From: Alphaproteobacteria bacterium
GTDB lineage: Bacteria; Pseudomonadota; Alphaproteobacteria; Bin95
Length of the DNA stretch: 64,000 nt
Reading direction: 5' to 3'
NCBI GenBank assembly: GCA_964291285.2
Contig: OZ219785.1
Span: 256,001-320,000 of the forward strand
Under the pieces are notes generated by a model, which saw only the letters and a list, made by a program, of their open reading frames with translations, was not told the DNA's origin and did not search any database. Position 1 is the stretch's first letter. Each line of letters opens with the position of its first letter. Both the position numbers and the translations under genes were made by a program. Below, piece by piece: positions 15,480 through 30,942 of the stretch.

Positions 15480-15715
15480 CGATGCTCTAGAGAACCGCCC
15501 GAAACGCCGCCGCGTCACCCATTCCGGGCTGCGATTGCCCATCCCGGACGACCCGGAAGAGGGGTGCCCCGGTGAGCGCGCGGGCACTCTCCTCCGCTTC
15601 GCTGAGCACGGTGTCGAGGGTGGCGTTGATGCGCGGGATGGCCACGTTTAGGGTGGAGATGGGCCCGCACAGCGTCCGGTTCTCCCGCCTCGCGTCGTCG
15701 GACTGCGTCAGGGCA
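15480..15715 (-). pseudogene. Possible remnant of a GAF-domain sensor/regulator
   Basis: Fragment ...ISTLNVAIPRINATLDTVLSEAEESARALTGA resembles GAF N-terminal helices; no intact gene. Confidence 0.3.
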
Positions 15716-15734
15716 CCTCCCTTTCCGATCTAGC

Positions 15735-16031
15735 TCATTTTTATTGAAACGACATCATAAAATCGATTGCTCACACGTACATTTTACACATGATGTTCTA
15801 CAGTCGAGCAGAATTGGCTTGCTGGTTCGACGAAACGGAATGCTGCGGGGTCGGCAGCCGGTGCATGTCGTGCTGGATACTGCGCCAGCGCGGCTTCCTT
15901 GAGGCGGCGGAACCGGATGCTTCGCCGCTGGCGTTGCAACTGCGTGAGGTTCCCATATTCGCAGACAATCTCGGCAACGAGCCACGAACCGGGGTGGCTC
16001 CCGGCCCCGCGTCGCCTCCGACCGCCGCAAG
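15735..16031 (+). repeat. 297-bp repeat, left copy (promoter/leader of left RiPP operon)
   Basis: Reverse complement of 29945-30241 with about 3 mismatches by manual comparison. Confidence 0.95.
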
Positions 16032-16052
16032 CAAGTCGGGCGAGGCGCCGTC

Positions 16053-17171
16053 ATGAACTTCGAAGAGGGACTGGTTGTCACGCAGGAGCGCCTTTCCCGC
16101 GAGGCAGGTTCCCTGGGGGAATTGCTTGCACGGCTGCGCGGCCGTATTTCCTCCGTGCTGATCGGAGACCGGGAATGGGAGCAGCTCCTGGAACGCGCCC
16201 GGGAGCTCCCCGCCGCCATGGCCGCCTTGCCCTTCGGCTTCGAACTGCCGCTGCACGAACGCCGTCCGGGAGCCGACCTCGGCGTATCGGTAGTCGGCGG
16301 AACCGGATCGGCCGTGTATTTCGAAAACATGGTCCGGTCCGGAAACGAAGATCCGGTCGTCTCCGGAATCGTAGGGCTGCTGCGCGAGACGGAGCGGGAT
16401 GACTCTCATCTCGGTCAGGTCATCGGCCGCAAGATGATGCTCGAATACGACGTCTGGTCAGCGCCAGGCGGCACGCGCCCGGCCCCGGGGATCTTCCTGC
16501 GGCCGGCCGAACGGCCCATCGCGGGCGATGGCGATGCGGGGCGGATTCGGGATATCGGTGTCGTGCTGGCGGCCTTGGCCTCCGCCGCGGGGTGGAACCT
16601 CGATGCTGCCGAGCGCCGGTTGACCGAGCGCGTTCACCTGGCGCAGCCGGCGGATACGCGCATCGATTCCTTCGGCGTGTTTCCCGCGCGCGAACAAGCC
16701 ATCCGGCTGGCGGTAACCGGTTTTCGGTCTCTGCACGACGTCGCGGCGTTTCTGGAGCGCGCCGGCTGGCGCGGGGGAACGGTCCTCTCCACTGCGTCCG
16801 GTCTCGAACAACGCGGCGGCTTTGCGAGCCTCGGGGCCCACATCGACGTACGGGCCGACGGCCCGGGTCCTTCGCTCGGGCTGAGTTTCCTCGCGAAGCA
16901 CCGAATAGCCAACGACCCGAGCTATTGGCTGGACTGCCCCGATCAGTGGACAACCTTCCTGGATGGGTTGCGTCGGGAAGAACTTGCCGTCCCGGAGAAA
17001 CTGGATGCGCTGGCCGCATGGTCGCCGGGTCCGACGACATTGTTCGGTGCGTCCGGGGCATTCGTGCTGGTGCGGGGCATTCACCATATAAAGCTCGTGC
17101 TGACCGGGGACCGGGTCGCGCAAGTCAAGGCCTACCTTTTCATGGCGATGACCGCCGCGCCACCCCCCTAG
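16053..17171 (+). CDS. Uncharacterised RiPP tailoring enzyme, putative ABBA-fold prenyltransferase
   Basis: FGFELPL..ADLGV, MLEYD, PGIF, IRLAV, HIDV...GPSLGLSF, HHIKLV...VKAYL pattern; lies inside the NHLP cluster. Function inferred. Confidence 0.55.
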   Translation: MNFEEGLVVTQERLSREAGSLGELLARLRGRISSVLIGDREWEQLLERARELPAAMAALPFGFELPLHERRPGADLGVSVVGGTGSAVYFENMVRSGNEDPVVSGIVGLLRETERDDSHLGQVIGRKMMLEYDVWSAPGGTRPAPGIFLRPAERPIAGDGDAGRIRDIGVVLAALASAAGWNLDAAERRLTERVHLAQPADTRIDSFGVFPAREQAIRLAVTGFRSLHDVAAFLERAGWRGGTVLSTASGLEQRGGFASLGAHIDVRADGPGPSLGLSFLAKHRIANDPSYWLDCPDQWTTFLDGLRREELAVPEKLDALAAWSPGPTTLFGASGAFVLVRGIHHIKLVLTGDRVAQVKAYLFMAMTAAPPP

Positions 17172-17216
17172 ACGAGTATCGGCCGGGCGTCACCCGCACC
17201 CGATATCCACAGCCGG

Positions 17217-18107
17217 ATGGAGAGCAAATTGCCCCGACCGCACGATGTCGATCACATGCGCGCCGTCGAGCGCCACTACACCAGCATGACCGAGAAGTTC
17301 TATCTGAACGGCTGGAACCGGGACCATAATCATCTCGGGCTGTTCGAGCCGGGAGAACTGCCCCCGCCGGGCCAGAAGCCCCGGCATTCGGCAGGAGTAG
17401 CAAGGGCGGTGGAACGCATGATCGACGTCGTGGCCGGACCTGCCGCGATTGCGGAACACCATCATGTGGTGGATGCCGGATGCGGCGTTGGCGGTACCGC
17501 CATTCATCTCGCAAAAGCACATGGTTGCAGGGTCACCGGCGTGAACATCAACCGGCTCCAACTGGAGATCGCGCAGAAGAAAGCGATGGATGCGGGCGTT
17601 GCCGACCGGGTCGGCCTCGAATATGCGGACTGCTGCCGGAGCCTGCCCTTTGCCGACAATACAATCGACGTCGTGGTCAACATCGAAAGCGCCTGCCACT
17701 ACAGCGACCGGGAACGATTTCTCCGCGAGGTCCATAGAATCCTCAAGCCCGGCGGAAAAATCGTTGCGATGGACTGGATGGCGCGGGACCGTCTGTCGAC
17801 CGAACAGTACGACCGGTTCATCCGGCCGGTCTGCCAGTCATGGGCGATGGTCAGTCTGGAATGCCAGGCCACCTACACCGCCAAGCTGCAGGAGGCGGGC
17901 CTGGAGATCGTGGAGTTCGAGGGTTTCGGCGGGAAGGAAATGGACAACCTGAAAATCATCGAGAACGACTATCGCAACCTTACGCTCATGTATTTCGGCG
18001 GATTCGGGACGCCGCCGTTTCTTGAGCTGATGGAGGGGATCGGCAGACTGTACGCGGCCTGGCGAGACGGTTATTTCGAGATCAGGCGCTATTGTGCGCA
18101 GAAGTGA
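17217..18107 (+). CDS. Class I SAM-dependent methyltransferase (sterol/tocopherol/prenyl-MT-like)
   Basis: HLGLF, VDAGCGVGG, LPFADNTIDVV, ESACHY, RILKPGG. Confidence 0.9.
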   Translation: MESKLPRPHDVDHMRAVERHYTSMTEKFYLNGWNRDHNHLGLFEPGELPPPGQKPRHSAGVARAVERMIDVVAGPAAIAEHHHVVDAGCGVGGTAIHLAKAHGCRVTGVNINRLQLEIAQKKAMDAGVADRVGLEYADCCRSLPFADNTIDVVVNIESACHYSDRERFLREVHRILKPGGKIVAMDWMARDRLSTEQYDRFIRPVCQSWAMVSLECQATYTAKLQEAGLEIVEFEGFGGKEMDNLKIIENDYRNLTLMYFGGFGTPPFLELMEGIGRLYAAWRDGYFEIRRYCAQK

Positions 18108-18196
18108 GAAACCGTCCGCCGGCCCTGCGCAACCGGCTTTCCATCTGCGTGCGACCGCGAAGACGGACGCCGAGGGCTCCGTGACGCAGATCCGAT

Positions 18197-19066
18197 CTAG
18201 GGAGCCCTCCGGCCCGACAGGAGCCGGTAGGTGAACGCGCCGCGGCGCAGCCCCTCATCGAAATCCAGCGCTGCCTGCATGAAGTCGAGCCATGGTCGCC
18301 GCTCCTCGCCCGGGTGAGGATTCGCAAACCGGTACAGAAGCCAGCTTGCCCTGGTTGCCTGCGCCGATGGCGCCACCTCCGCATCCAGCTTCCTTGCCTC
18401 CCCGCCCTCAAGTTCCGCTTTTTCGAGGTCTGCAAGCGCCTGGCGCCATGTGACGAGCGGCGGCATGCGGAAGCCCTGCTGCATCCTTGCGTGGACCTCT
18501 TCCAGTTTCGGAGAAAGCGGCCGGCCGCTCAGCAACCCTTCCAGGGCCTGCCACCGCCCCCCGGGCTTGAGCACCCGGCGGACGCCTCGAAGATACGCAA
18601 CCTTGTCGGGCGCGTAGCAGAAGGACTCGTGGTTGATCACGGCGTCGAAACTCGCATCGGCGAACGGCAGGTCCATGAAGTCCCCGTGGAGAAACTCGAC
18701 CAGATGGCCGACCCCTCGTCGCTCCGCCTGCTTTGCCGCTACGGCGACATGCGGTTCGCAGTTGGTCAATCCCGTGACGTTGACCCCGTGCGTTTCAGCC
18801 AGGTAGATCGCCGTACCCCCCACGCCGCAGCCGGCATCCAGCCAATGCGCTCCCGGCTCCAGGTTGCATCCCTCGGCCAGCACCCGGTTGGCCCGCAACA
18901 GGGCTTCGCGGTCCGTCCCGGTGTCCGGGCCCCAAAGCCCGAAATGGCACGCCAGCAGGTCCCCGTTCGACACAATCATCGCCGGCGTTATTGCCGTGTA
19001 GAGGTCGGGGACGGACAGCTCCGTCTGCGCCTCCCCGGACGATCGGCTGGAAGCGCCGCCGGTCAT
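18197..19066 (-). CDS. Class I SAM-dependent methyltransferase (paralog of 17217-18107)
   Basis: HFGLW, LDAGCGVGG, LPFADASFDAV, ESFCY, RVLKPGG; ATG overlaps the MMPL stop (ATGA). Confidence 0.88.
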   Translation of the reverse strand: MTGGASSRSSGEAQTELSVPDLYTAITPAMIVSNGDLLACHFGLWGPDTGTDREALLRANRVLAEGCNLEPGAHWLDAGCGVGGTAIYLAETHGVNVTGLTNCEPHVAVAAKQAERRGVGHLVEFLHGDFMDLPFADASFDAVINHESFCYAPDKVAYLRGVRRVLKPGGRWQALEGLLSGRPLSPKLEEVHARMQQGFRMPPLVTWRQALADLEKAELEGGEARKLDAEVAPSAQATRASWLLYRFANPHPGEERRPWLDFMQAALDFDEGLRRGAFTYRLLSGRRAP

Positions 19067-21435
19067 GCTTCGGGCCGATGCCGGCGCTTCGACTTCAGGG
19101 AAGGGCTTTCGCCGCCGGCGCCGCGATCGACGGCCATGAGCAGCGACGGCAGGTGCGTCAGGTCGGCGAGCAGCGCGAACCCGATGATCATTGCGATGAG
19201 CAGGCCGACCTGAGCGGTGGGGATGAATGGTGAGAGCACCAGAATGAGGAATCCCGCCACAAATATGACCGTGGTCGTCGCGAGCGCCTGTCCAACCGAC
19301 CGGAACGCGCAACGGACGGCGTCTTCCGCCGTGCAGTCGCGCTCGCGCCGGGCGCGCTGGTATTTGCTCAGGAAGTGCACCGTGTCATCGACCACAATCC
19401 CGATCGTGATGGCCACCACCACGGATAATGCGAGCCCGACCTGCCCCACCGCCAGGCCCCAGACGCCAAACGCCAGGATTGCGGGGGCGAAGTTGGGCAC
19501 GAGGCTGACGATGCCCAGCCGGAACGAACGCAATGCAAACAGAAGAACAATGGAAATGCCGAGAAGGGCAACCGAGGTTCCAAGCAGCATCGCCCGGATG
19601 CTCCGCTGGCCGATATGCCCGAACAGGAGCGCCGGGCCGGAACTGTCAACATGCACGATGCGGGATGCATTGGCTTGCAGCCAGGCCTCGGCGCGCCCGT
19701 TCAATTCAATGACATCCTGCGACGACAGCGTCTGCGTCGTCACCGTCATCCGGGTCGCAGACCGGTCGGGGTCGATCCGGTCGTTCAGGTTGCGGCCCTG
19801 TGGAAGCGAAAACTCGTAGAGCAGGAGGTATTGGGTGGCGAGTTCCCGATTCGCGGGCAGGCGATAGGCCTCCGGATCGTCGCCATGCATGCTCTTGTTG
19901 AGTTGCCGAAAGGTATCGGTGATGACTTCGACGTGCCGCGTCTCCGGCTGTTCGCGATACCAGTCGGCGAAGGCGGCCACTTCGGCCAGAAAGGCCGGGT
20001 CGGTCACATCTCCCGGTCGGCCCGCCGCCAGCGAATACTCGAATTGCGTGGTGCCGCTCAGCCGCTTGTCCAGGAAATCGGTATCTTTACGGACCTGAGT
20101 GCTCTCATCGAAAGAGTGCACCAATACGTCGTTCAGTTCATTGCGCGGAACTGCTGCCAGCAAGGCGAGCACGACCGCCGCCGATCCCCACATCAGGATC
20201 TTCCGTCGGCCGACCACGAATTCGGCCATGGCCGTCATCACCCGACTGTCGCGTTCCCTGGCGGCCGGTGTGCTTCGCAACGGCAGAAGCGACAGCAAAG
20301 CCGGCAGAAAGGCGATCGAGAGCGGGAACGCGGCGACGATGCCGAACGCCACGAAGTTCCCGAGATCGCGGTGGGGCGGAACCTCGGAGAAGTTCAGGCT
20401 CAGAAAACCGAGTGCGGTAGTCAGGTTGGTCAGAAAGATCGGATGCAGGTTGATCCTTACGGCTTCGATGATTGCCGCGCGCCTGGCATCGCCGGCGCGC
20501 AGGCGCTGTCGCAAGGCAACCAGCAGATGCACACAGTTGGCGACCACGATCATCATTACGATGCTCGGCGCCGGAGTAGCGGTAGGCGAGAGGGGCAGGC
20601 CGGTCCAGCCGCCCAGCCCCATCGATACGATGACCGAAAAGACAATCGCAAGCACTGTCGCCGCAACTCCCGCAATACTCCGGGTCAGGAGTCCGAGGAT
20701 CACGACCATGACCGCGAGGCTTGCAGGCAGAAAGACCTTGTGGTCGTTGACCGATGCTTCCGAAAAGGCGTGGTTGATGACGACCGTCCCAACCGCTCGG
20801 AACCCGATGCCGGGGAACCGTTCCTCCGCTTCCGCAACCACGCCGTCAGCAAATGCGGCGATCTCGGGCACCCGAACCGCCTGATCTTCTTCGACCAGCT
20901 CGACGGTTACGTTGACGGCGCTGACGCTTCCGTCCCGGGACACCAGACTTCCTGCGAGGCCGAGGTCGGCCAGGGCAATGTCACGGACCCGGATACGCTC
21001 CCGTTCCTGGCCCAACAGCGCCGGATCCACGAGGTTCCGTACGGATAACTCATCTCCATCTGCGGTAATGCGCTGGAAATTCGCCATCGAATCGACGCGC
21101 TTGGAGTATGGCGTCTGCCACGCACGCTCAGTGAGCCAAACCAAAGCTTCGAGCGCCTGTTCCGACGTGGCGTCGCCACCATCCGGAACGATCATGAAGA
21201 GGATGTTGTCAGTTTTCCCGTAGGTGCTTTCCAGCGCTTCGTACGCCAGAAGTTCAGGATTGTCCTTGCTGAAGAATATGCGGTAGTCGGTCGTGAAATT
21301 CAGAAACAGGCAGCCGCTTCCGGCCAACAGAACCAAAATCGTACCGACTGCGATGACAGGCCAGCGGAAAGCGACCGCCCACCGGGCGCACCGTTCTTCG
21401 AGCTTGAGGGTCCGGACATCGGGCGTCTCTGCCAT
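19063..21435 (-). CDS. MMPL/RND-superfamily exporter
   Basis: Two repeats of TM bundle plus periplasmic domain; PIFLTNLTTALGF, GIVVDDTVHFL. Confidence 0.88.
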   Translation of the reverse strand: MAETPDVRTLKLEERCARWAVAFRWPVIAVGTILVLLAGSGCLFLNFTTDYRIFFSKDNPELLAYEALESTYGKTDNILFMIVPDGGDATSEQALEALVWLTERAWQTPYSKRVDSMANFQRITADGDELSVRNLVDPALLGQERERIRVRDIALADLGLAGSLVSRDGSVSAVNVTVELVEEDQAVRVPEIAAFADGVVAEAEERFPGIGFRAVGTVVINHAFSEASVNDHKVFLPASLAVMVVILGLLTRSIAGVAATVLAIVFSVIVSMGLGGWTGLPLSPTATPAPSIVMMIVVANCVHLLVALRQRLRAGDARRAAIIEAVRINLHPIFLTNLTTALGFLSLNFSEVPPHRDLGNFVAFGIVAAFPLSIAFLPALLSLLPLRSTPAARERDSRVMTAMAEFVVGRRKILMWGSAAVVLALLAAVPRNELNDVLVHSFDESTQVRKDTDFLDKRLSGTTQFEYSLAAGRPGDVTDPAFLAEVAAFADWYREQPETRHVEVITDTFRQLNKSMHGDDPEAYRLPANRELATQYLLLYEFSLPQGRNLNDRIDPDRSATRMTVTTQTLSSQDVIELNGRAEAWLQANASRIVHVDSSGPALLFGHIGQRSIRAMLLGTSVALLGISIVLLFALRSFRLGIVSLVPNFAPAILAFGVWGLAVGQVGLALSVVVAITIGIVVDDTVHFLSKYQRARRERDCTAEDAVRCAFRSVGQALATTTVIFVAGFLILVLSPFIPTAQVGLLIAMIIGFALLADLTHLPSLLMAVDRGAGGESPSLKSKRRHRPEA

Positions 21436-21645
21436 GCTCACGCCCACCGCAAGCGAACGCCCCGCAAACGGGCACGACCGCCCGTCTTCAACATTGCTGC
21501 AACGCGGCGGTGGAAATCGCGGCCGGACGGGCAATCGGCGGCTTGCGCCATGCGGCGTCGGCGCTCACCGTTCACGCCCGCAAGCGCCGATAGTCTGGAG
21601 CCGCCCCGAGTTCGGCTTCACCGGCCCCGGGGCAGCAAGACTGCG

Positions 21646-21900
21646 TCAAGTTCCGCAGCAGCACCAACCGGCGGAGATTGCCTCAAGCTGTTCTTCATTC
21701 AGCACCGGCGTCGGCGGCAGTGCAAGATGAACGGTCTGCATGTCGCTCTCATGCACCTTGATCTCGGTGCTGTCCGGAACGGTGATCCCGAACTCTTGAC
21801 TCAGGACACCTTTGGGATCGGACACAAGCTGGGCTCGGAAGTCTGCATCTTCAACGGCTTTCTGAGTCAACAGCGAAAGCGTTTCCTCTGCAGTTTGCAT
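21646..21900 (-). CDS. NHLP-family RiPP precursor, core WCCCGT
   Basis: KAVEDADFRAQLVSDPKGVL...IKVHE...VHLALP nitrile-hydratase-like leader; LNEEQLEAISAG double-Gly-type cleavage motif; strong RBS AAGGAGAAGGAGG. Confidence 0.92.
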   Translation of the reverse strand: MQTAEETLSLLTQKAVEDADFRAQLVSDPKGVLSQEFGITVPDSTEIKVHESDMQTVHLALPPTPVLNEEQLEAISAGWCCCGT

Positions 21901-21932
21901 AGCTGGCCTCCTTCTCCTTTACGGTCACGCTC

Positions 21933-23384
21933 GGTCGTGTCCCCAGGGGTGGTGTAGGAGCTGAAGCTTCCGGTGGTAGCTGTGGGTAAGTGGCCCGCCG
22001 CCGCGACCGTCTGGAGTCAGGCGGCGGCGGGCCACTTACCCACAGCGGAGGCCATCGCGGTGCCGGTTAGGGTTGGGCTGTCACAGTCCACCTGACCGGA
22101 GGAGTACCACGATGACCACCACCGACATGATGACCCTGCGGGCGCTGTTGGAGAAGAGTTCCGACGCCGACCTGCTTCGCGAGATGATCGGGTTCACGGC
22201 CGCGCGTCTGATGGCGCTTGAGGTTGAGGGCCTTGCGGGCGCCGCGCACGGCGAGCGCTCGCCGGACCGGATCACGCAGCGCAACGGCTACCGGGACCGG
22301 GTCTGGGAGACGCGGGCCGGCACGGTCGAACTGAAGATCCCGAAGCTGCGCAAGGGGAGCTACTTCCCGGGCTTCCTTGAACCGCGGCGGATGGCGGAGA
22401 AGGCGCTGACGGCGGTGATCCAGGAGGCCTACATCAAGGGCGTATCGACCCGCTCGGTGGACGACCTGGTGCAGGCGATGGGCATGTCGGGCATCTCCAA
22501 GAGCCAGGTGTCGCGGCTGTGCGGCGAGATCGACGACAAGATCCGCGACTTCCTCGACCGGCCGCTGGAGGGCGACTGGCCGTATCTCTGGCTTGACGCG
22601 ACCTATGTGAAGATGCGCGAGGCCGGGCGCGTCGTCTCGGTCGCGGTCACCATCGCGGTGGCGGTCAACGATCAGGGCCGGCGCGAGGTGCTCGGCATGG
22701 CGATCGGCGCGTCCGAGGCCGAGACCTTCTGGACCGACTTCCTGCGCTCGCTCGCCCGCCGCGGCCTGCGCGGCGTCAAGCTGGTGATCTCCGACGACCA
22801 CAAGGGCCTGAAGGCCGCCGCCACCCGCATCTTCGGCGCCACCTGGCAGAGATGCCGCGTCCACTTCATGCGCAACCTGCTCGCCCATGCCGGCAAGCAG
22901 GGCCGGCGCGTCGTCTCCGCCTTCGTCACTACCGCCTTCGCCCAGGAGGATGCAGACAGCGCCTCCGCCCAGTGGCGCCAGGTCGCCGACCAGCTCAGGC
23001 CCAAGGCGCCAAAGCTCGCCGCCATCATGGACGAGGCCGAGCACGATGTTCTCGCCTACATGACCTTCCCGGCCGCGCACCGCGCCAAGCTGCACTCGAC
23101 AAACCCGCTCGAACGCCTCCACGGCGAGATCAAGCGGCGCACAAACACCGTCGGCATCTTCCCCAACGAGGACGCCATCACCCGGCTGATCGGCGCAATC
23201 CTGCTCGAGCAGAACGATGAATGGGCAGTCCAGAGAGCCAGATACATGACACTGGAATCCATCGCTCCCGTGAGCGACAATACAACCGTCAAGTTGCCCG
23301 CCGTGGCAGCCTGAGCGTTCCGGCCCTACCCGCCGGACACCGCTACGGACGCCAGGCTCTTACACCACCCGCGGGGGCACGATC
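21933..23384 (+). mobile_element. IS256-family insertion sequence
   Basis: Imperfect ~29-bp IRs (GGTCGTGTCCCCAGGGGTGGTGTAGGAGC vs GATCGTGCCCCCGCGGGTGGTGTAAGAGC); 8-bp TSD TCACGCTC (21925-21932 / 23385-23392). Confidence 0.93.
22112..23314 (+). CDS. IS256-family transposase
   Basis: [50 protein letters not shown]. Confidence 0.95.
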
Positions 23385-23595
23385 TCACGCTCGGGATATC
23401 TGGCGCATGCCGCCAGTCAGCAACCGATATAACAGCGTATCGGATGATGACGTAAGTTGCAATCTGTTATCCCGATATCATCCAATCGACAGCGATGACC
23501 GAGAGTGCGAACGCCGCGACGCGCCCGGCGGCGACCTGGGCTCGATGATGGTCACGGCCGTGGTCGAGGGTTGGACGCTCGGTCCCGACCGCGTT

Positions 23596-26517
23596 TCAGG
23601 CCAGTTGTCGGCGAACCAGAGTCTGAAAGACGCCTTCAGTCGCCATCAGTTCCGCAAAGGATCCCTCCTGGACGACCTTGCCTGCCCGCATCACGTAGAT
23701 GCGATCCGCCTGACGCAGCGTGGAAAGGCGGTGCGCGATAACGATCCGTGTCGAGGTCATGGATGCGAGGTTCTGCATGACCGTGGCTTGGCTGTCGTTG
23801 TCGAGCCAGTTCGTCGCTTCATCAAGCAGAAGAATGCGGGGATTGCGAAGCAGCGCATGGGCGATCACGATGCGCTGGCTCTCGCCTCCCGAAGTGACGC
23901 CGGCGCTAGTGCCAACGCGCGTCAGCATGCCCATGGGCATCGCCGATATCGCGCGATCGACGGCCGCAAGCCGTGCGGCCCGCCACACATCCTCTTCGGT
24001 TGCATCCTCGTTATCGTCGACGATGTTGTCCCACACGTCCTCCGGATGGAGCCGCACATCCTGAGGTACCACGCCAATTCGCCGGCGCACCTGCTTGATG
24101 TTGAGGTGATTCAGGTCGCGACCATCGTAGTACACCGAGCCGGAAGACGGCCGGTCCAACCCAAGCGCGAGACGGAAAAGCGTGCTCTTGCCGGCTCCCG
24201 ATTCGCCGGCAATGGCTACGAACTCCCCGGGTCGGGCGTGGATCGACACGTCGTCGAGGATCATCGGGCCCTCCGGATCGTAGCGGAAGTTGACGTGGTC
24301 GAACACGATGTCGCCGCCCAAAGTCTCGACCATCTCTCCATCAACACTCGTCTCCGGGGGCTCCGCCAGGAGCGGCCGAACCTGATTCAGCGCCGGCATG
24401 ACGGCGGCCACGGCGCCGAAGGACGCGCCGAGGCGGGTCACCGCCGTCTGGAACACGAGGAACACCGTATAGACGACGAGAAAGTCCCCTACCTTGAGGG
24501 CCTCGCGGTCCGGCAGCGTCGCGGCGGCGAACAGCACGGCACCGGCGAGGAAAGGCAATGCGGCGCTGAGCGCCTGCAGACGATCTTCGATGGCGTCCCG
24601 TTTCAACTCGGCCTGTTTCTGCTCGCGATAGTCCCGTGCCCAGACCGCGAACGCCGACCCTTCCGCGCCCTCGACCCGCAATGCGGAAATCCCGTTGATG
24701 AGCTGGAACAGCCGACCGGCCAGGCGCCGCACGGCCCGGATCACTCTGCCATGGGGTGTTATCTGCCGCACGCCGAGCGCCACGGTCGCGACGAGCGAGA
24801 CGAGCCCGAAGGCGACGGTCACGCAACCCAACGTGACGTCGTAGAAGAAGATGAGGATGAAGGCAGGGGACAGGAAGACAATCGACAGCACGGCGTTGGC
24901 GACCACGCCCTGAACGGTATCGCGAAGAGTCTGGAACGTCATGCCCCTCATGGCGAGGTCGCCGGCCGGATAGCGTTGGAGGAAACTCGGAGGCAACCGG
25001 AGCAGACGATCCCAGAACGCAGCCTCGACCCGTGATGCAACGCGTCCTTCGAGGCGCATCAGCGCCATTCCCTGGAGGACGTGGAGCAGCGCCCCGAGCA
25101 GGGCGACCACGGCCAGCGTCGCGGTCGCCACATACAGCAGACCAGGCTCTCGACCAGCGATCACCTCGTCCGCGACGAAGCCCAGCATCAGCGCCGGCAG
25201 CAGCGTGACCAGACCGCCGAACAGCCCGGCCACGACGAAACGCGCGAGGTCGATGTTCAGTCCCGTTCCGGCGAGCCGCAGCAGAGCCCCCAGCCCTACA
25301 CCGGTGGACGGGAGTGGACGATAGAACAGCCATGCGTCGGTGCGGAGCGTTTCGGCGCGCCCGGCCGTAACCCTGATGCTGCGCCGCGCACCGGGATCCA
25401 CTTCCCGATAGCGCCCTGACATACCCGGCAACAACACCACGGACCGGCCGTCGTCCGCCCGGAACGCCAGCATCACGCCGGAGTTTCCGATCCACCACTT
25501 GTCGCGGCGGGCCAGCCGCACCCGGCGGGCGCGCACGCCGGAAGCATCCAGCACATTGCCGAGGATGGCCGAGGTATTGGAGGCTTCCATCCGGGCCGGC
25601 CACCTGAAGTCGATTCCTTCGTGACGACCGATGATCTCCAGTGCCTTGAGCAACGCCGTCTCGCCAGCGTCGGCATTTGCCTCTTCAGCGAGACCGTACA
25701 GGTCGAACAGGCGATGCCGGGCGCTGTCCTCGTCGATGCGGCGGCTGGTCGCCCGCGCCCGCTCCAGATTCGCCTCGTCGACGACCGCGAGGCTCCGGTT
25801 GAGGCGCTCCAGAGAGAACGCTGCGGCATGGAAATCCGCCAGGGCGGATAACAGACGGCCCTCCTCGGCGAGGGTGTCGGAGGACCGGGCGGAGAGCAGC
25901 ACCTCTTCCGTCAGTGATAGCCATGTCGCCGGCGTGAGCGGCACCGCGCCCGACCCGCCGCCGCCATCCGGCCCGCTCTCCACCGGATCGATCAGGCCCA
26001 GGAACAGGCCCGCGCCTTTCGCCACCGACACCCACTCCACGCCGCGCCGGGTACTGACCGTGCCGGCACTTGTCTTCGGGACCTCCCCGGCTTCGACCAG
26101 GACATCCGGGCGTGGCCGATAAGCGACATCCCGGGAGAGCATGGCGGAAACCGCCATGAGCCACGCATCGACATGCTCCGCCAGTTCCGCACTGCCGACC
26201 GCCGCCAGATCGTCAGCCGGGATGCGCCGCAGCACCGTACCCGGCAAGCCCTTGGCGACAAGGCTCAGAGTGGTGTGTTCCACCTGCGGTGCGACACCGG
26301 GCAAGAAGCGCCCGGAAGCGGCCCGAAGCAGGTGTTGCGGCACCGATTGCTCTACCCCGTCCCGGTGTTCCACCAGGAACAGGTCCACCGCGCCTTCGTC
26401 GACAAACCAGGCGAACTGCGGATCGCTCATGTCCAGCGGCAGGTTACCGGCGCAGGGCACGGGCACCCCCGCTTCAGCGGCAAGCTGGGCAAGCGGGCGG
26501 CGTTGCGGCAGCGCCAT
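23596..26517 (-). CDS. NHLM bacteriocin system ABC transporter, ATP-binding/permease (no peptidase)
   Basis: 973 aa; N-terminal extension, TM domain, GESGAGKST, SGGESQR, LLLDEAT. Confidence 0.9.
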   Translation of the reverse strand: MALPQRRPLAQLAAEAGVPVPCAGNLPLDMSDPQFAWFVDEGAVDLFLVEHRDGVEQSVPQHLLRAASGRFLPGVAPQVEHTTLSLVAKGLPGTVLRRIPADDLAAVGSAELAEHVDAWLMAVSAMLSRDVAYRPRPDVLVEAGEVPKTSAGTVSTRRGVEWVSVAKGAGLFLGLIDPVESGPDGGGGSGAVPLTPATWLSLTEEVLLSARSSDTLAEEGRLLSALADFHAAAFSLERLNRSLAVVDEANLERARATSRRIDEDSARHRLFDLYGLAEEANADAGETALLKALEIIGRHEGIDFRWPARMEASNTSAILGNVLDASGVRARRVRLARRDKWWIGNSGVMLAFRADDGRSVVLLPGMSGRYREVDPGARRSIRVTAGRAETLRTDAWLFYRPLPSTGVGLGALLRLAGTGLNIDLARFVVAGLFGGLVTLLPALMLGFVADEVIAGREPGLLYVATATLAVVALLGALLHVLQGMALMRLEGRVASRVEAAFWDRLLRLPPSFLQRYPAGDLAMRGMTFQTLRDTVQGVVANAVLSIVFLSPAFILIFFYDVTLGCVTVAFGLVSLVATVALGVRQITPHGRVIRAVRRLAGRLFQLINGISALRVEGAEGSAFAVWARDYREQKQAELKRDAIEDRLQALSAALPFLAGAVLFAAATLPDREALKVGDFLVVYTVFLVFQTAVTRLGASFGAVAAVMPALNQVRPLLAEPPETSVDGEMVETLGGDIVFDHVNFRYDPEGPMILDDVSIHARPGEFVAIAGESGAGKSTLFRLALGLDRPSSGSVYYDGRDLNHLNIKQVRRRIGVVPQDVRLHPEDVWDNIVDDNEDATEEDVWRAARLAAVDRAISAMPMGMLTRVGTSAGVTSGGESQRIVIAHALLRNPRILLLDEATNWLDNDSQATVMQNLASMTSTRIVIAHRLSTLRQADRIYVMRAGKVVQEGSFAELMATEGVFQTLVRRQLA

Positions 26518-26521
26518 TGGG

Positions 26522-28744
26522 CTAGCCCGCCTTGACGAGCCGGTAGTAGGCCCCGTCCTCGTCCGCCATCAACTCGTCGTGGGTGCCGCGCTGCGCCTCC
26601 GTGCCCTTCTCGAGCACGATGATCTGGTCGCAATCCCGGATCGTACTCAGCCGGTGCGCGACAATCAGGCAGCTCACCCCGCGGCGGCGCAGCGCGTCGT
26701 TCACTTCCTCTTCGGTGGCGGCGTCGAGAGCGCTCGTCGCCTCGTCAAGCACCAGCACCGTCGGGCTGCCTACCAACGCACGGGCGATTTCGAGCCGCTG
26801 CCGCTGGCCGCCGCTGAAGTTGCCCCCGTCCTCATCCACCAGCGTCGCATAGCCGAGCGGCCGGGCGAGGATCTCATCGTGGATGCAGGCGTCCCTGGCC
26901 GCCGCTGTCACGGCGTCGTCGGGAACGGAGTGATTCCACAGGGTGATGTTGTCGCGCACGGTCGCGGAGAAGAGGACAATGTGCTGTTCCACCGTCGAGA
27001 GCGAGCGCGACAGCACGTCGCCGGGAATCTCGTTTCGCGGACGTCCGTCGAACAGAATCTCGCCGGACCAGGGCTCGCAAACGCCGGAAACCAGGCGTGA
27101 CAAGGTGGATTTTCCGGACCCGCTCGGGCCGACCACCGCGATCCGCTGTCCCGGCTTGATCGTCAGATTGAAATCTTCGATCAGGGGCGGCCGGGCGCGA
27201 TTGTAGCCGAAGGTGACGTTGCGCAGTTCCACATGGCCGGCCAGTTGCAGCCGACCGTCCAACGTCGCGATGGCCTCCGACGACGGGGCCTCATCCGCCG
27301 CCTCTCCGTCTTCCGGCGCTTCCATGATGTCATCCAGGCGCTGCATGTCGGCCTCGAGCGCCTGCCGCTCATCGGCGAACTCGACGAAGCGTCCCACCGG
27401 TGCGAGGAACATGGCGGCCACGATGTAGAACCCCGCGAGCGCGCCGAGCGTCAACTCGCCGGCGATGACCTGGATTGCCCCGAAGGTCAGCACCACCGCG
27501 TTCCCGAGCACCATGAAAAAGCCCGGCAACGCTGAATTGACATGGCCGAGCTCAGCGACGCGCTGGCGTGCGACGAGCTCGCGAGCCTGATGGCCGCTCC
27601 ACCGGGAGAAAAAGCCATCGTCTGCGGCGGTCATGCGCCGGGTATCCGTGTGGTGCAGCATCAGCGTGCCGACACCCGCCAAGAGCCCCTGCTCGCGGCG
27701 CAAGATGTGGCTCCTGTCGGTCCGGAGGCGCGCGATGACGCGCACGAACGCCGCGTTCAGTACCGCCAAGCCAAGCACGATCAACGCCAGGACAGGCTCG
27801 TAGGCGAGCATCACCGCCAGAAACACCGCACTCATCACGAGCTCGGCCAGGAACGCGGGAAAATGCTCCGACATGCCTCTGGCGATCCTCTCGATGGAAA
27901 GGACGCGCGCGGTCAGTTCGCCGCCGAGCTGTTGACTGAAGAAATCCACCGGCATCCGCAGCAGTTGCGACATGCAACGGTTTCCCGCAATGACCGAAAC
28001 CCGTGCAGCCAGCCGCCGCAAGCAGCACTGCTTGAGCCTGGTGAGGCCATAGGCCAGAACGGCGGCCGCAGCCATGATGGCGGCCACGAACTCCCCCCAG
28101 GGCTCGTTCTCCAGCAGCACCCGATCCACGAAAACCGCGAGCAGTGCCGGGGTCACTAGGGCCAGCGCGGCCAGCATCAGCCCACAGGCGATCGTGTAGG
28201 TTAGAGCACCTTTGGCACCGCCGAGCCACTGCGGGATCCGTTTCAGGAAGTTGGGACGCGCACCGCCGCGTTCGAACGCCGGGCCGGGTGCGAATTCCAG
28301 TGCAATTCCTGTGAAGCCGATGCTGAATTCTTCGGTCGAGAGCGTACGGCGGCCCGAGGACGGGTCGTTGAGAAAGAACCGATGGCGGTCGAAGCCTTCC
28401 AGGATGAGGAAGTGGTTGAATTCCCAAAACAGAATGAGCGGTAGCGGCAGCTTTCTGAGCTGGTTCAGCTTCACGCTGCGGCCAGTGCATTCCAGACCGT
28501 AGTGTCTGGCGGCACGCGAGATGCCGGCGGCGCTGGAGCCGTCCCGGCTGACCTCGCATCTGACGCGCAACTCGTTGAGCGGTACCCATCGCCCGAAATA
28601 GGCGAGCACGCTACCAAGGCATACGGCGCCGCACTCGGTGGCGTGCATCTGCAGCAGGAGGGGCGTGGTGACCCGCTTCTTCACGAGCTCCGTTGGGGCT
28701 TCGTCGCGCGCTTCCACGGATGCGTTCCGGCCGCGCCCGAGCAT
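26522..28744 (-). CDS. NHLM bacteriocin system ABC transporter with C39 peptidase domain
   Basis: LQMHATECGAVCL, WEFNHF, LNDP (C39 Cys/His/Asp); GPSGSGKST, FSGGQRQR. Confidence 0.93.
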   Translation of the reverse strand: MLGRGRNASVEARDEAPTELVKKRVTTPLLLQMHATECGAVCLGSVLAYFGRWVPLNELRVRCEVSRDGSSAAGISRAARHYGLECTGRSVKLNQLRKLPLPLILFWEFNHFLILEGFDRHRFFLNDPSSGRRTLSTEEFSIGFTGIALEFAPGPAFERGGARPNFLKRIPQWLGGAKGALTYTIACGLMLAALALVTPALLAVFVDRVLLENEPWGEFVAAIMAAAAVLAYGLTRLKQCCLRRLAARVSVIAGNRCMSQLLRMPVDFFSQQLGGELTARVLSIERIARGMSEHFPAFLAELVMSAVFLAVMLAYEPVLALIVLGLAVLNAAFVRVIARLRTDRSHILRREQGLLAGVGTLMLHHTDTRRMTAADDGFFSRWSGHQARELVARQRVAELGHVNSALPGFFMVLGNAVVLTFGAIQVIAGELTLGALAGFYIVAAMFLAPVGRFVEFADERQALEADMQRLDDIMEAPEDGEAADEAPSSEAIATLDGRLQLAGHVELRNVTFGYNRARPPLIEDFNLTIKPGQRIAVVGPSGSGKSTLSRLVSGVCEPWSGEILFDGRPRNEIPGDVLSRSLSTVEQHIVLFSATVRDNITLWNHSVPDDAVTAAARDACIHDEILARPLGYATLVDEDGGNFSGGQRQRLEIARALVGSPTVLVLDEATSALDAATEEEVNDALRRRGVSCLIVAHRLSTIRDCDQIIVLEKGTEAQRGTHDELMADEDGAYYRLVKAG

Positions 28745-29635
28745 TCAGGATTGTCCGTGGACGAGAAGCGCTGCCGGCGTGCTCCGGCCAAGTTCGATCC
28801 GTACGCGGCAAGGGGCACCGTCGGGCACGGAGAGAGCTGGTTCGTGCGCAAGGACGACATCGATCCGGTGTCCTGATTCCGCGGTTGCGGGCAGCATCGC
28901 TGCCAACCAGTGGGGCAACGGCCCGGCGGCCACTAAAGCGACCTCGCCTTGCAGGTGCCGAATCGCACCGTCCGACATTGTGACCTCGACGGACGCCCCC
29001 ATGCCGGGCCGGATGCGTTGCGCCATGTCGGGAGCGGCGCGGAGCACCGCTTGCAGCGGACGATCGTCCGCCTCCCGGAGCAGAGCCACCGGCGCACCCG
29101 CCGGCAGATAGTCTCCCGCAGCGGCGTACAGGTTCACGACCTCGCCTCCGATCCGGCTGACGACCAACGCCCGCGCGGCACGACGGGCTTCCATCTGCAA
29201 CAAGGCGGCATGAGCCGAGGCCAGCAACGAACGCAATGCGTCGCCCCCTCCGCCGGCCTCCCGGATTTCCGCCTCCAGAAAGTCCACGCGCTCGCGCAGG
29301 ATCCCTATCTCCCGATCCAGTTGCGGCACGCTCTGCCGGGCGATCGGGTCACCGGCCGCGATGCGGCTTCCGGGAACGACCAGGAGCTCCACGAGGTGAC
29401 CGGATTCGGACGAAACCACGTTGTGGCGGGCGCCCGGCTCGATCAGGACCCCGTCGAAGGCGACGCTGCGAGCGATACTGCCGAACAGCGCCCATGCCAC
29501 AAACCCTGCCAAGACCAGGCCGATGCCGGCCAGTATGACGCGTTCGTGGGGCGCGGTTATCCGCAGCAGACGGTCGAGTTGCTGGCGCTCGTTCCTGCTG
29601 ACGGCGGCTTCCTCGCGAAACGGGTTGCTGAACAC
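28745..29635 (-). CDS. NHLM bacteriocin system secretion protein (HlyD-like)
   Basis: FREEA...QLDRLLRIT N-terminus, single TM, lipoyl-like motif; GTG start after GGAGAG. Confidence 0.85.
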   Translation of the reverse strand: MFSNPFREEAAVSRNERQQLDRLLRITAPHERVILAGIGLVLAGFVAWALFGSIARSVAFDGVLIEPGARHNVVSSESGHLVELLVVPGSRIAAGDPIARQSVPQLDREIGILRERVDFLEAEIREAGGGGDALRSLLASAHAALLQMEARRAARALVVSRIGGEVVNLYAAAGDYLPAGAPVALLREADDRPLQAVLRAAPDMAQRIRPGMGASVEVTMSDGAIRHLQGEVALVAAGPLPHWLAAMLPATAESGHRIDVVLAHEPALSVPDGAPCRVRIELGRSTPAALLVHGQS

Positions 29636-29944
29636 CGGCTATCGCTCTCCAATCGTCCGGTCGCGGCTATAGGCAAGGCGGCGCGATTGTGTGGCGGAGG
29701 CCGCGCCCTCGAAGCGAGGCGAGGTGCCGTGCATCGCCCACCCCTCGCGATGACCGGGATCGCTCCGCATGTAGGCCCAGGCACCGCATCCCGGTCCGTG
29801 GCTTTGCCGCGGCTCACCGTCCGCCGTCCCGGCAAGCGCCGCCTGGAGGCACGCTGCAGACGGCTTCACCACCACGCGTTCAGCCGGAGCCGGGTCACGT
29901 CGACCTCGATCTCCGCCGGGCTGTCGACCTTCCCCGAGCACGCA

Positions 29945-30241
29945 CTTGCAGCGGTCGGAGGCGACGCGGGGCCGGGAGCCGCCCCGGTTCGTGGCTCGTT
30001 GCCGAGATTGTCTGCGAATATGGGAACCTCACGCAGTTGCAACGCCAGCGGCGAAGCATCCGGTTCCGCCGCTTCAAGGAAGCCGCGCTGGCGCAGTATC
30101 CAGCACGACATGCACCGGCTGCCGACCCCGCAGCATTCCGTTTCGTCGAACCAGCAAGCCAATTCTGCTCGACTGTAGAACATCATGTGTAAAATGTACG
30201 TGTGAGCAATCGATTTTATGATGTCGTTTCAATAAAAATGA
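29945..30241 (-). repeat. 297-bp repeat, right copy (promoter/leader of right RiPP operon)
   Basis: Inverted near-identical copy of 15735-16031. Confidence 0.95.
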
Positions 30242-30259
30242 TCCGATCTTCCCTGCGGC

Positions 30260-30766
30260 ATGGCGCACCGCGGTCCCGCCGCCCGGACCCGGGTCCAGAA
30301 GCGATCCAGCCAACCGGAGGTTGGCGGCCGGTCCGTGTGCGCCGCCCCGAACACCCACCGGCCCTTGCGGTCCAGCGCATTCAGGATGTTGCGGGCGGGC
30401 GTGGACAGCCAGACGGTTTTCGATCCCGTCTTGCCGTCTCGGAGGAACAGATGGCCTTCCCGGCAGTCGCGCCATTGCAGGGTGAGGAGTTCGCCCTTGC
30501 GGCAGCCGGTCGGCAGAAGAAGCCGGATGACCGCGACCTGCCGCGGCCGCCGAGGCGCGCGCCTCGTCGATGCTCATGGCGCCGGCATCGCCGACAATCT
30601 TCCAGACACGCTCGCCGCGATGCTGGCACTGGATGAAGAACCGCTTCCTGCCGGTGGGCATCACCCGGACGCCGAAGCCCTTGAGTCTGGCGTCCCGGAT
30701 GTCGTAGGGTGACCTGCGAGGTTTGAGCGCCTCGATGCGGGCGGCGGTAAGGGTAACCTTGGGCAT
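30260..30766 (-). pseudogene. Degenerate tyrosine integrase
   Basis: Arm-binding N-terminus MPKVTLTAARIEALKP..YDIRDARLKGFGVRV joined out of frame to catalytic fragment IRLLLPTGCRKGELLTLQW..KTG; middle and C-terminus missing. Confidence 0.8.
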
Positions 30767-30942
30767 GTCGCTCTCCCGGTTCCAGTTGCTGACGGGGAAG
30801 CGCCAGTGGTGGCATTTGTTCCCCGGTTGCAGTTTTTCGGGAGAAAAAAGCGATGCCATATCAGATAGTTGGTACCACAAGGTGCGTATCCGGTGTCTTC
30901 TTCCGCAAAACCGACGACGATCAGGGAAAGGAACCCCATCCG

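Follow-up and report, generated by a model that had tools for sequence, protein, structure and literature searches.

A predicted prenyltransferase-barrel protein of srp-type peptide clusters is a candidate for leader-guided peptide prenylation

Introduction

Can a protein that matches no known prenyltransferase profile be a peptide prenyltransferase? The question is raised by a gene at positions 16053 to 17171 (+) of a stretch of 64,000 nucleotides, here called the window, from the genome of an Alphaproteobacteria bacterium (assembly GCA_964291285.2, contig OZ219785.1, positions 256,001 to 320,000). An earlier note on this DNA, made from the sequence letters, described the product as an orphan enzyme that recalls the alpha-beta-beta-alpha (ABBA) barrel prenyltransferases found with lanthipeptides (NctP-like), and proposed that it acts without a lanthionine synthetase. 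In our analysis the protein is predicted to adopt the prenyltransferase (PT) barrel fold, and the word orphan has to be dropped. The gene belongs to the core of an srp-type cluster for a RiPP (a peptide made by ribosomes and modified after translation) of the NHLP/proteusin type, with the precursor gene 4.5 kb away, and elsewhere it usually lies right after a YcaO gene. The reading that we favor, and to which we give somewhat better than even chances, is that the PT-fold protein represents a new sequence family and works as a leader-guided peptide prenyltransferase. This reading draws on computed results, obtained by prediction and comparison: the fold, the family, the membership in the cluster, the link to YcaO, cyclase and methyltransferase genes, and the binding of the precursor in silico.

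The srp clusters of sponge microbiomes were reportedly discovered by Nguyen et al. in 2021, in JACS. In the passages of the later literature covered here (PMC10858898, PMC10286304, PMC12455567, PMC12537861, PMC9426513, PMC12426817 and two bioRxiv preprints), these clusters rank with the RiPP clusters that sponge microbiomes share most widely and transcribe most highly, and their product is cryptic (PMC9426513, bioRxiv 10.1101/2023.06.09.544420, PMC10858898). The YcaO enzyme SrpC makes three thiazolines and SrpI brominates a C-terminal Trp, the precursor SrpE has the core LCCCW, and YcaO and the brominase are the only srp enzymes with an assigned activity in those passages (PMC10858898, PMC10286304).

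Results

The open reading frame (ORF) at 16053-17171 is intact, starts with ATG and encodes 372 amino acids. An AlphaFold2 model built from a 40-sequence alignment has a mean predicted local distance difference test score (pLDDT) of 92.4 and a predicted template modeling score (pTM) of 0.91. In the model, antiparallel strands are ringed by helices in alpha-alpha-beta-beta units, the PT-barrel architecture of the ABBA superfamily. The strand pairs are 61-66/75-81, 127-132/146-149, 203-209/217-224, 259-267/270-280 and (328-332)/335-351/354-368, with helix pairs between them and N-terminal helices preceding the first strand. The ten strand-like motifs quoted in the earlier note (FGFELPL, ADLGV, MLEYD, PGIF, FGVF, IRLAV, HIDV, LGLSF, HHIKLV and VKAYL) each have a single occurrence in the translation, and every one overlaps with a beta-strand of the model, which is far above chance.

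Structure comparison, the check that had been named for the fold, bore the fold inference out. A Foldseek search of the PDB returned 112 matches at E<=0.001 (top E 2.1e-6), and those listed are all ABBA aromatic or peptide prenyltransferases: NphB/Orf2, 6-DMATS, FunA, IptA, DMATS1, EpzP, PriB and TleC, and further PagF, NotF, AmbP3, FamD1, CloQ, LimF and AtaPT. On re-alignment with VIA-align, 131 of 999 chains reached Z>=8 and none fell between 5 and 8; the 50 entries listed are prenyltransferases without exception, and the best match is MpnD (4yla; Z 16.8, root-mean-square deviation (rmsd) 4.5 Å, 309 residues aligned). The DMATS-type indole prenyltransferases (MpnD, TleC, CymD, IptA, PriB) give the best structural matches, at Z 16.8-13.5, and the NphB/CloQ-type ABBA enzymes follow at Z 13.4-12.4, with 260-310 residues aligned across the two types. 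Enzymes of both types share with the PT-fold protein a size of ~350-375 amino acids and the N-terminal helices before the first strand. However, identity in the structural alignments is 6-15%, there is no profile match, and the known enzymes use free small molecules. In the ESM Atlas, PF11991 Trp_DMAT (0.91) and PF11468 PTase_Orf2 (0.88, a lead only) are the closest clusters that bear a name. As modeled, the protein is a soluble ABBA-fold protein, and the large family to which it belongs lacks a Pfam model.

Polar residues were compared across 59 sequences with identity down to ~25%, and twelve are kept in at least 85% of them: E64, D75, E131, Y132, D133, R213, R218, K316, H345, K347, K359 and Y361. 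Most of these lie on barrel strands in the model, and the window copy keeps all of the residues that are conserved across the superfamily. The terminal HIK...KAY pattern that the earlier note had stressed includes four residues that are among the most highly conserved in the set, H345 (98%), K347 (94%), K359 (93%) and Y361 (96%). H345/K347 and K359/Y361 are each spaced i, i+2, and this spacing is expected to put the side chains of each pair on one face of the strand. ABBA enzymes hold the diphosphate of their donor with basic and Tyr residues that line the barrel, and in some families an Asp serves for Mg2+. In the PT-fold protein, R213, R218, K347, K359, Y361 and H345 would make up a putative diphosphate site in the barrel.

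The family is large. Among 8000 scored candidates, 648 are related to the PT-fold protein at E<=1e-3, and the best 120 of these are all 367-439 amino acids long and carry no precomputed Pfam domain. In a library clustered at 50% identity, the number of related representative clusters is 1298 at E<=1e-3 and falls to 497 at <=1e-10 and 163 at <=1e-30, and the members of related sequence clusters are named only 'hypothetical protein'. A sample of 301 genomes from the phylum of one related locus (L023) yielded 2 with a relative. The homologue alignments begin at residue 1 of the window protein, and the ratio of nonsynonymous to synonymous substitution rates (dN/dS) is 0.22-0.28 across the six pairs formed by the window gene and its orthologues in L001, L002 and L003. 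On this sequence evidence the gene is real, conserved and under purifying selection.

The precursor is encoded on the opposite strand, at 21646..21900 (-). It is an NHLP-leader RiPP precursor of 84 amino acids (TIGR03793 leader_NHLP, 65.8 bits against a cut-off of 50.9) whose leader ends in ...LNEEQLEAISAG, followed by the core WCCCGT. An NHLP leader with a short core of three consecutive Cys is what marks srp-type precursors, and both are found here. In an alignment of the window precursor and 35 relatives (n=36), A77, G78, C80 and C81 do not vary, and C82 is kept in at least 90%.

We co-folded enzyme and precursor from the enzyme alignment and the 36-row precursor alignment, in three runs with three controls. 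The score is 0.67 (runs 0.67, 0.68 and 0.67), against 0.00 for the best control; a score of 0.67 is reached by 116 of 157 solved complexes and by 2 of 215 mismatched pairs, counts that calibrate only roughly because our own alignments were used. The runs share at least 89% of contacts, and the pLDDT of the partner is at least 78. The contacts predicted with confidence run between precursor residues 71-82 (QLEAISAG-WCCC) and enzyme residues 59-60, 79, 127, 152, 286-293, 327-340 and 365-370. The invariant W292 lies within the stretch 286-293, and S79 and K127, on strands 2 and 3, also touch the peptide. The predicted complex supports a placement of the C-terminal end of the leader and the core at the barrel mouth; it describes binding in silico and is silent on chemistry.

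Related loci were collected by scanning one genome per species, which gave 406 stretches with a PT-fold relative; 78 loci were retained. From these, the window and a second copy in the same genome we obtained 85 gene copies. The loci come from metagenome-assembled genomes (MAGs) of Pseudomonadota, Nitrospirota, Acidobacteriota, Gemmatimonadota, Thermodesulfobacteriota, Binatota, Verrucomicrobiota, Rhodothermota and Myxococcota. For 76 of the 85 copies the same locus encodes a precursor that shares at least 50% identity with that of the window, and for 51 it lies within 500 nt. The cores of 72 distinct precursors are LCCCW (50), MCCCGI (4), WCCCGN, LCCCGI and RCCC (3 each) and LCCCGV (2), with WCCCGQ, LCCCGL, LCCCL, LCCCV and LCCSW once each and two that the pattern did not parse. 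Trp is present in the WCCCGx and LCCCW cores, and CCC is the only constant feature.

The genome of the window (6.1 Mb in 5 contigs) holds a canonical srp-type cluster 228 kb from the window cluster. It comprises a YcaO gene followed by genes for a PT-fold copy, a precursor, an MMPL protein, a desaturase-nucleotidyltransferase fusion, an ATP-binding cassette (ABC) exporter and an NHLP-tagged protein. The YcaO gene, at C1:44130-45143, is the only one in the genome and adjoins the second PT-fold copy, which is 49% identical to that of the window. The precursor of this cluster ends in ...EEQLEAISAG-LCCCW, and LCCCW behind a leader with the motif ...EEQL... is the published SrpE core. The second cluster shares with the srp clusters, as far as the published passages describe them, the precursor family and the YcaO enzyme, and places the PT-fold gene between YcaO and precursor. 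From gene order, with YcaO as srpC and the precursor as srpE, the PT-fold gene may be srpD. The window cluster differs from the published one in its core, WCCCGT, and its two methyltransferases, and in lacking YcaO, cyclase and halogenase in cis: no YcaO gene is present in the 64-kb window, and the Trp_halogenase-family matches of the genome (the family sought for SrpI, a flavin-dependent Trp brominase) are on contig 3, near neither cluster. Because there is no YcaO in cis, the Cys residues of the window core may stay free or be cyclized in trans.

Two further features of these loci were seen. The fusion in the canonical cluster is of a type represented by a 658-amino-acid protein with a membrane fatty-acid-desaturase domain and a GlnE-like nucleotidyltransferase domain (L013:5690-7666); homologues occur in 52 of 79 sources, and in canonical and LCCCGx-type clusters the gene lies just upstream of YcaO. 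Three loci from Nitrospirales/Nitrospira MAGs with the core RCCC (L050, L057 and L072) have two PT-fold genes each, and their second copies form a long-branched group of their own, 45-47% identical to the window protein.

A quick maximum-likelihood tree of the 85 copies, for which the careful search is incomplete, divides them into two groups, each supported at 100. In the first clade (63 rows), 55 copies go with LCCCW or LCCSW cores, and the stretches of the other 8 contain no precursor. The second clade (22 rows), which includes the window copy, has the cores WCCCGx, LCCCGx, LCCCL/V and RCCC, with one copy lacking a precursor in the locus. The companions of the enzyme follow the same division. 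One or both methyltransferases are present with 21 of 22 second-clade copies and 0 of 63 in the first clade, and a protein of ~433 amino acids with an NHLP-like N terminus is encoded in the same locus for 51 of 63 first-clade copies and 0 of 22 in the second. The canonical copy of the window's own genome is counted among the 12 without this protein because the gene falls in an adjacent stretch (L083).

The predicted fold of this NHLP-tagged partner is that of a class II terpene cyclase. In the genome of the window it is encoded at L083:841-2142 (-), which corresponds to C1 ~48.8-50.1 kb; another example is L013:4308-5609. The model has a pLDDT of 78.7, with the N-terminal 110 residues poorly defined. 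Residues 113-433 match the drimenol/drimenyl-diphosphate synthase AsDMS (Z 30.5, rmsd 2.3, 285 aligned), MstE (Z 28.4, 301 aligned) and squalene-hopene cyclases (Z 26.6-27.3), compared with Z <=19.5 for unrelated alpha/alpha toroids. Class II cyclases use DxDD/DxDT as their acid motif, and the sequence D209-L-D211-S212, invariant in the alignment of the partner, recalls it. The N-terminal region ends in ...AEREAARTG, which resembles a double-glycine cleavage site. This leader-like tag might direct the enzyme to the C39 exporter, or the leader-binding enzymes, that also serve the precursor. The presence of a cyclase-fold partner in most LCCCW-clade loci points to isoprenoid chemistry.

The frequent pairing with YcaO brings up a different role, in which the PT-fold protein is an accessory of YcaO that holds the leader and presents the CCC core for thiazoline formation, or acts on azolines, and transfers no prenyl group. 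In 58 of the 85 copies the gene directly upstream, on the same strand, encodes YcaO, with a gap of typically ~10 nt, and among 8000 long candidates one database protein of 851 amino acids (P0277) joins a YcaO domain to 65% of a PT-fold protein. SrpC alone was reported to be poorly active, leaving SrpE only partially modified, in the passages covered (PMC10286304), and the co-fold scores favor precursor binding with no bearing on the reaction. However, no YcaO adjoins the window copy or the four orthologues closest to it (L001, L002, L003 and L029), and yet these genes are under purifying selection. The twelve conserved polar residues on or near the barrel strands exceed the needs of a scaffold, and the cyclase-fold partner again speaks for isoprenoid chemistry. 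P0277 may be a read-through of gene calling, and a single case is too thin to use. We regard a purely accessory role as quite unlikely.

Precursor and enzyme distributions also bear on whether the acceptor is the precursor at all. An ABBA transferase could act on a small aromatic or thiol metabolite or on a leader-free exported product, or could use a non-standard donor. Most solved ABBA enzymes use small molecules, no aromatic residue occurs in the core for 17 of the 22 copies of the window's clade, and one distant relative (G146, E 1e-34) lies beside an FAD-binding monooxygenase gene with no recognizable precursor and no clear context, in surroundings of 74% G+C where gene calling is hard. 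Set against this are the precursor found in the same locus for 76 of the 85 copies, the exact match between enzyme clade and core type across a split supported at 100 in the quick tree, and the co-fold, which on its rough calibration puts the core at the barrel mouth. An acceptor other than the precursor, or a non-standard donor, seems to us distinctly unlikely.

The remaining genes of the window cluster form, with the PT-fold gene, two convergent operons. A class I S-adenosylmethionine (SAM) methyltransferase of 296 amino acids, MT1 (17217..18107, +; Methyltransf_11 E 7.8e-23), begins 45 nt past the PT-fold gene on the same strand. Its closest solved chains are a D-glucose O-methyltransferase, MitM and 3bus (named only 'Methyltransferase'), with prenyl-diphosphate C-methyltransferases weaker, at ~1e-10. 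A second class I SAM methyltransferase, MT2 (18197..19066, -; Methyltransf_11 E 9.5e-23), is paralogous to MT1 (30% identity, BLASTP E 1e-28). The mechanical ORF of MT2 reaches 19312; its likely start, the ATG at 19066-19064, overlaps the TGA of the next gene (ATGA, 19063-19066), and this overlap suggests translational coupling of MT2 to the exporter encoded there. That exporter is a resistance-nodulation-division (RND) transporter of the MMPL/HAE3 type with 823 amino acids (19063..21534, -; PF03176 MMPL E 1.2e-38), which also matches the NCBIfam models for TIGR00921 HAE3 (E 1.7e-45) and HpnN-like proteins (E 1.7e-34), both under their cut-offs. An HAE3/HpnN-like RND gene is found in 41 of the 78 loci; in the 79 sources formed by these loci and the window, a LolA-like gene is found in 33 and a DUF1302 gene in 22. 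Beyond the precursor gene, on the same strand, are an NHLP-type bacteriocin export ABC permease/ATPase of 973 amino acids (23596..26517, -; TIGR03797 E 9.9e-206, 685 bits, cut-off 709), a Peptidase-C39 ABC transporter of 740 amino acids (26522..28744, -; Peptidase_C39 E 2.6e-31, with ABC_membrane and ABC_tran) and a HlyD-family adaptor of 296 amino acids (28745..29635, -; HlyD_3 E 5.2e-9). All genes between 16 and 30 kb could be assigned and none is LanM- or LanC-like; the absence of a lanthionine synthetase, as the earlier note had it, stands, and separates this cluster from those of MppC and NctP type.

Between the precursor and ABC genes lies an IS256-family transposase gene (22073..23314, +; Transposase_mut E 1.6e-121, NF033543), within an insertion of ~21933-23588 that is seen in this genome only. 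The insertion may uncouple the precursor, MMPL and MT2 genes from the promoter of the upstream operon. It also opens the question whether the window cluster is a broken satellite and its copy of the PT-fold gene a duplicate in decay, with no function of its own. The cluster has no YcaO, an integrase remnant is nearby, and a second, canonical copy of the gene sits beside the only YcaO of the genome. Moreover, position 215 of the window copy is Gln, where at least 90% of close relatives have Arg. Against decay, the ORF is intact and IS256 interrupts no reading frame. The synteny with L001 and L002 simply skips 21933-23588, and the same ten-gene architecture without the insertion sequence is kept at 82-91% nucleotide identity in L001, L002, L003 and L029. 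The low dN/dS also speaks against a loss of function. We think it very unlikely that the window copy is merely decaying.

The flanks of the cluster carry a repeated stretch of ~300 nt that appears to be non-coding. One copy (15738..16033, +) precedes the PT-fold gene and a second, inverted copy (29944..30238, -) precedes the HlyD/ABC operon; 15700-16060 (+) and the reverse complement of 29920-30260 are near identical over ~300 nt. The two thus bracket the whole cluster, each just upstream of one convergent operon (PT-fold/MT1 and HlyD/ABC), and synteny with the orthologous clusters begins just upstream of the PT-fold gene, at 15738 to 16036 depending on the locus. A DNA search of the genome with this stretch gave the two copies, at 100% and 99%, and five weaker or partial copies elsewhere, one of which (71%) is upstream of a gene for a large fibronectin-III-repeat protein. 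Both operons may use the stretch as a promoter or regulatory region, or it may be a small repeat element; an Rfam scan of the 1.2 kb upstream of the PT-fold gene found nothing above threshold. An ORF of 88 amino acids at 15790-16056, which overlaps the start codon of the PT-fold gene, was rejected as probably non-coding, as its counterpart in L002 shows single-base gaps.

At the right end of the cluster, the ORF at 30074-30880 (-) encodes an integrase Arm-DNA-binding domain alone. This ORF, and the 82-91% identity of the cluster across MAGs labeled as different classes, fit recent horizontal transfer. Among sequencing runs containing 15700-22000 of the window, no RNA run is listed; three runs of one study contain it with shares of 0.98-0.99, and a sponge-metagenome run covers a small share (0.15), from which we draw no conclusion on habitat or expression.

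Discussion

We favor prenyl transfer to the precursor as the function of the PT-fold protein, and several observations weigh against that assignment. One is that no link at the level of sequence was found between this family and known prenyltransferase families. A Pfam scan of the window protein gave only a chance match below threshold (E 0.029; 14.9 bits, cut-off 27), and an NCBIfam scan matched no family. PF11991 Trp_DMAT and PF11468 PTase_Orf2 matched neither genome copy at E<=10, none of 52 distant family members had any Pfam family at E<=0.01, and the best hit of the family profile among PDB sequences was to ATP synthase (E 0.55). A shared fold by itself shows no function, and the diphosphate site proposed above was assigned by inference from the model; Gln215, mentioned above, belongs on the same side. 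No polyprenyl synthase gene is in either cluster. The two in the genome lie on another contig, and prenyl donors must therefore come from general metabolism. Nor do the cores conserve an obvious acceptor, and their constant CCC is turned into thiazolines by SrpC in published work. The tight pairing of YcaO and PT-fold genes could equally go with a role in heterocyclization. Finally, the srp passages covered in PubMed Central and bioRxiv hold no assignment for this gene and no mention of prenylation; the original srp description is outside that scope, and an earlier annotation is possible.

Comparison with two peptide prenyltransferases, again as far as the cited passages go, shows where the system is familiar and where it departs. 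MppC of Moorena producens is a leader-dependent ABBA prenyltransferase that geranylates C5 of Trp in a lanthipeptide with a Nif11 leader (PMC12715784). It and the PT-fold protein are both soluble alpha-beta-beta-alpha barrels in RiPP clusters, with long structured leaders that contain L(X)4L (Nif11 there, NHLP here), and in both cases models place the C-terminal part of the leader on the enzyme surface. The two have no detectable sequence relation, however, and in place of a lanthionine synthetase the partner here is YcaO or methyltransferases; most cores here either lack Trp or have it elsewhere. NctPC, a fusion of a prenyltransferase with an MstE-like cyclase, puts geranylgeranyl onto Trp (Hubrich et al., 2024; PMC13290415). 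In the LCCCW clade the same succession of ABBA prenyltransferase and class II terpene cyclase would act on a ribosomal peptide, with a cyclase-fold partner that matches MstE at the Z given above. Unlike in NctPC, the two are encoded by separate genes, the cyclase-fold protein has an N-terminal NHLP-like domain, and the window's clade has no cyclase. The NctP-like label of the earlier note thus fits in fold and logic and fails in sequence, since no known prenyltransferase profile matches (Pfam E<=0.1; PF11991 and PF11468 E<=10). A search for NctP in PubMed Central and bioRxiv returned only unrelated papers.

From the predicted complex and the conserved residues we infer a mechanism, in which prenyl transfer itself, the roles of individual residues, the order of the steps and the acceptor are our proposals. 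The enzyme would grip the C-terminal part of the leader (precursor ~71-78, ...QLEAISAG) through the loop and helix at 286-293, including W292, and strands 327-340, and the core residues W79-C82 would be threaded into the barrel mouth. A nucleophile of the core would then receive an isoprenoid group from a prenyl diphosphate; the basic and Tyr residues of the putative site would hold the diphosphate in the barrel, and E64, D75, E131 and D133 could serve for Mg2+ binding or as a base. In the window's clade MT1 and MT2 would modify the product next; in the LCCCW clade the cyclase-fold protein would act at this point instead of the methyltransferases. The C39-ABC transporter would cut the leader after Ala-Gly and export the peptide, and the MMPL/HAE3 RND pump would handle the now lipophilic product. 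As aromatic residues are missing from most cores of the window's clade, a Cys-derived or terminal atom is as possible an acceptor as Trp79.

A more far-reaching version of this scheme takes the invariant Cys residues as the target. Eukaryotic CaaX/Rab processing consists of prenylation, proteolysis and methylation, and the prenylation is carried out by a zinc-dependent alpha/alpha-toroid enzyme. If the PT-fold family alkylated a sulfur or thiazoline-derived atom of the Cys-Cys-Cys motif, it would be a bacterial RiPP counterpart of that pathway that works through an ABBA barrel; the NHLP-tagged class II cyclase would cyclize the lipid in the LCCCW clade, the lipid of the window's clade would be methylated, and the srp peptides would be membrane-directed terpenoid lipopeptides. 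We consider this version unlikely.

Bacterial peptide prenyltransferases covered in the consulted passages of a 2026 review catalyze C-, N- and O-prenylation only (PMC13290415). Peptide prenylation, the function that the earlier note proposed, is plausible for the modeled protein. What is new would be a sequence family within a known fold and known RiPP chemistry, and its context is also new: YcaO/proteusin clusters with Cys-rich cores. Our analysis delimits a large ABBA-fold family for which Pfam has no model and that could be a leader-guided lipidation catalyst for cores that often have no aromatic acceptor. The PT-barrel fold, the cyclase-fold or methyltransferase companions and the exporters of a type that handles hydrophobic compounds together predict mature peptides that bear an isoprenoid, and this suggests that the srp-type peptides of sponge bacteria carry a lipid group.

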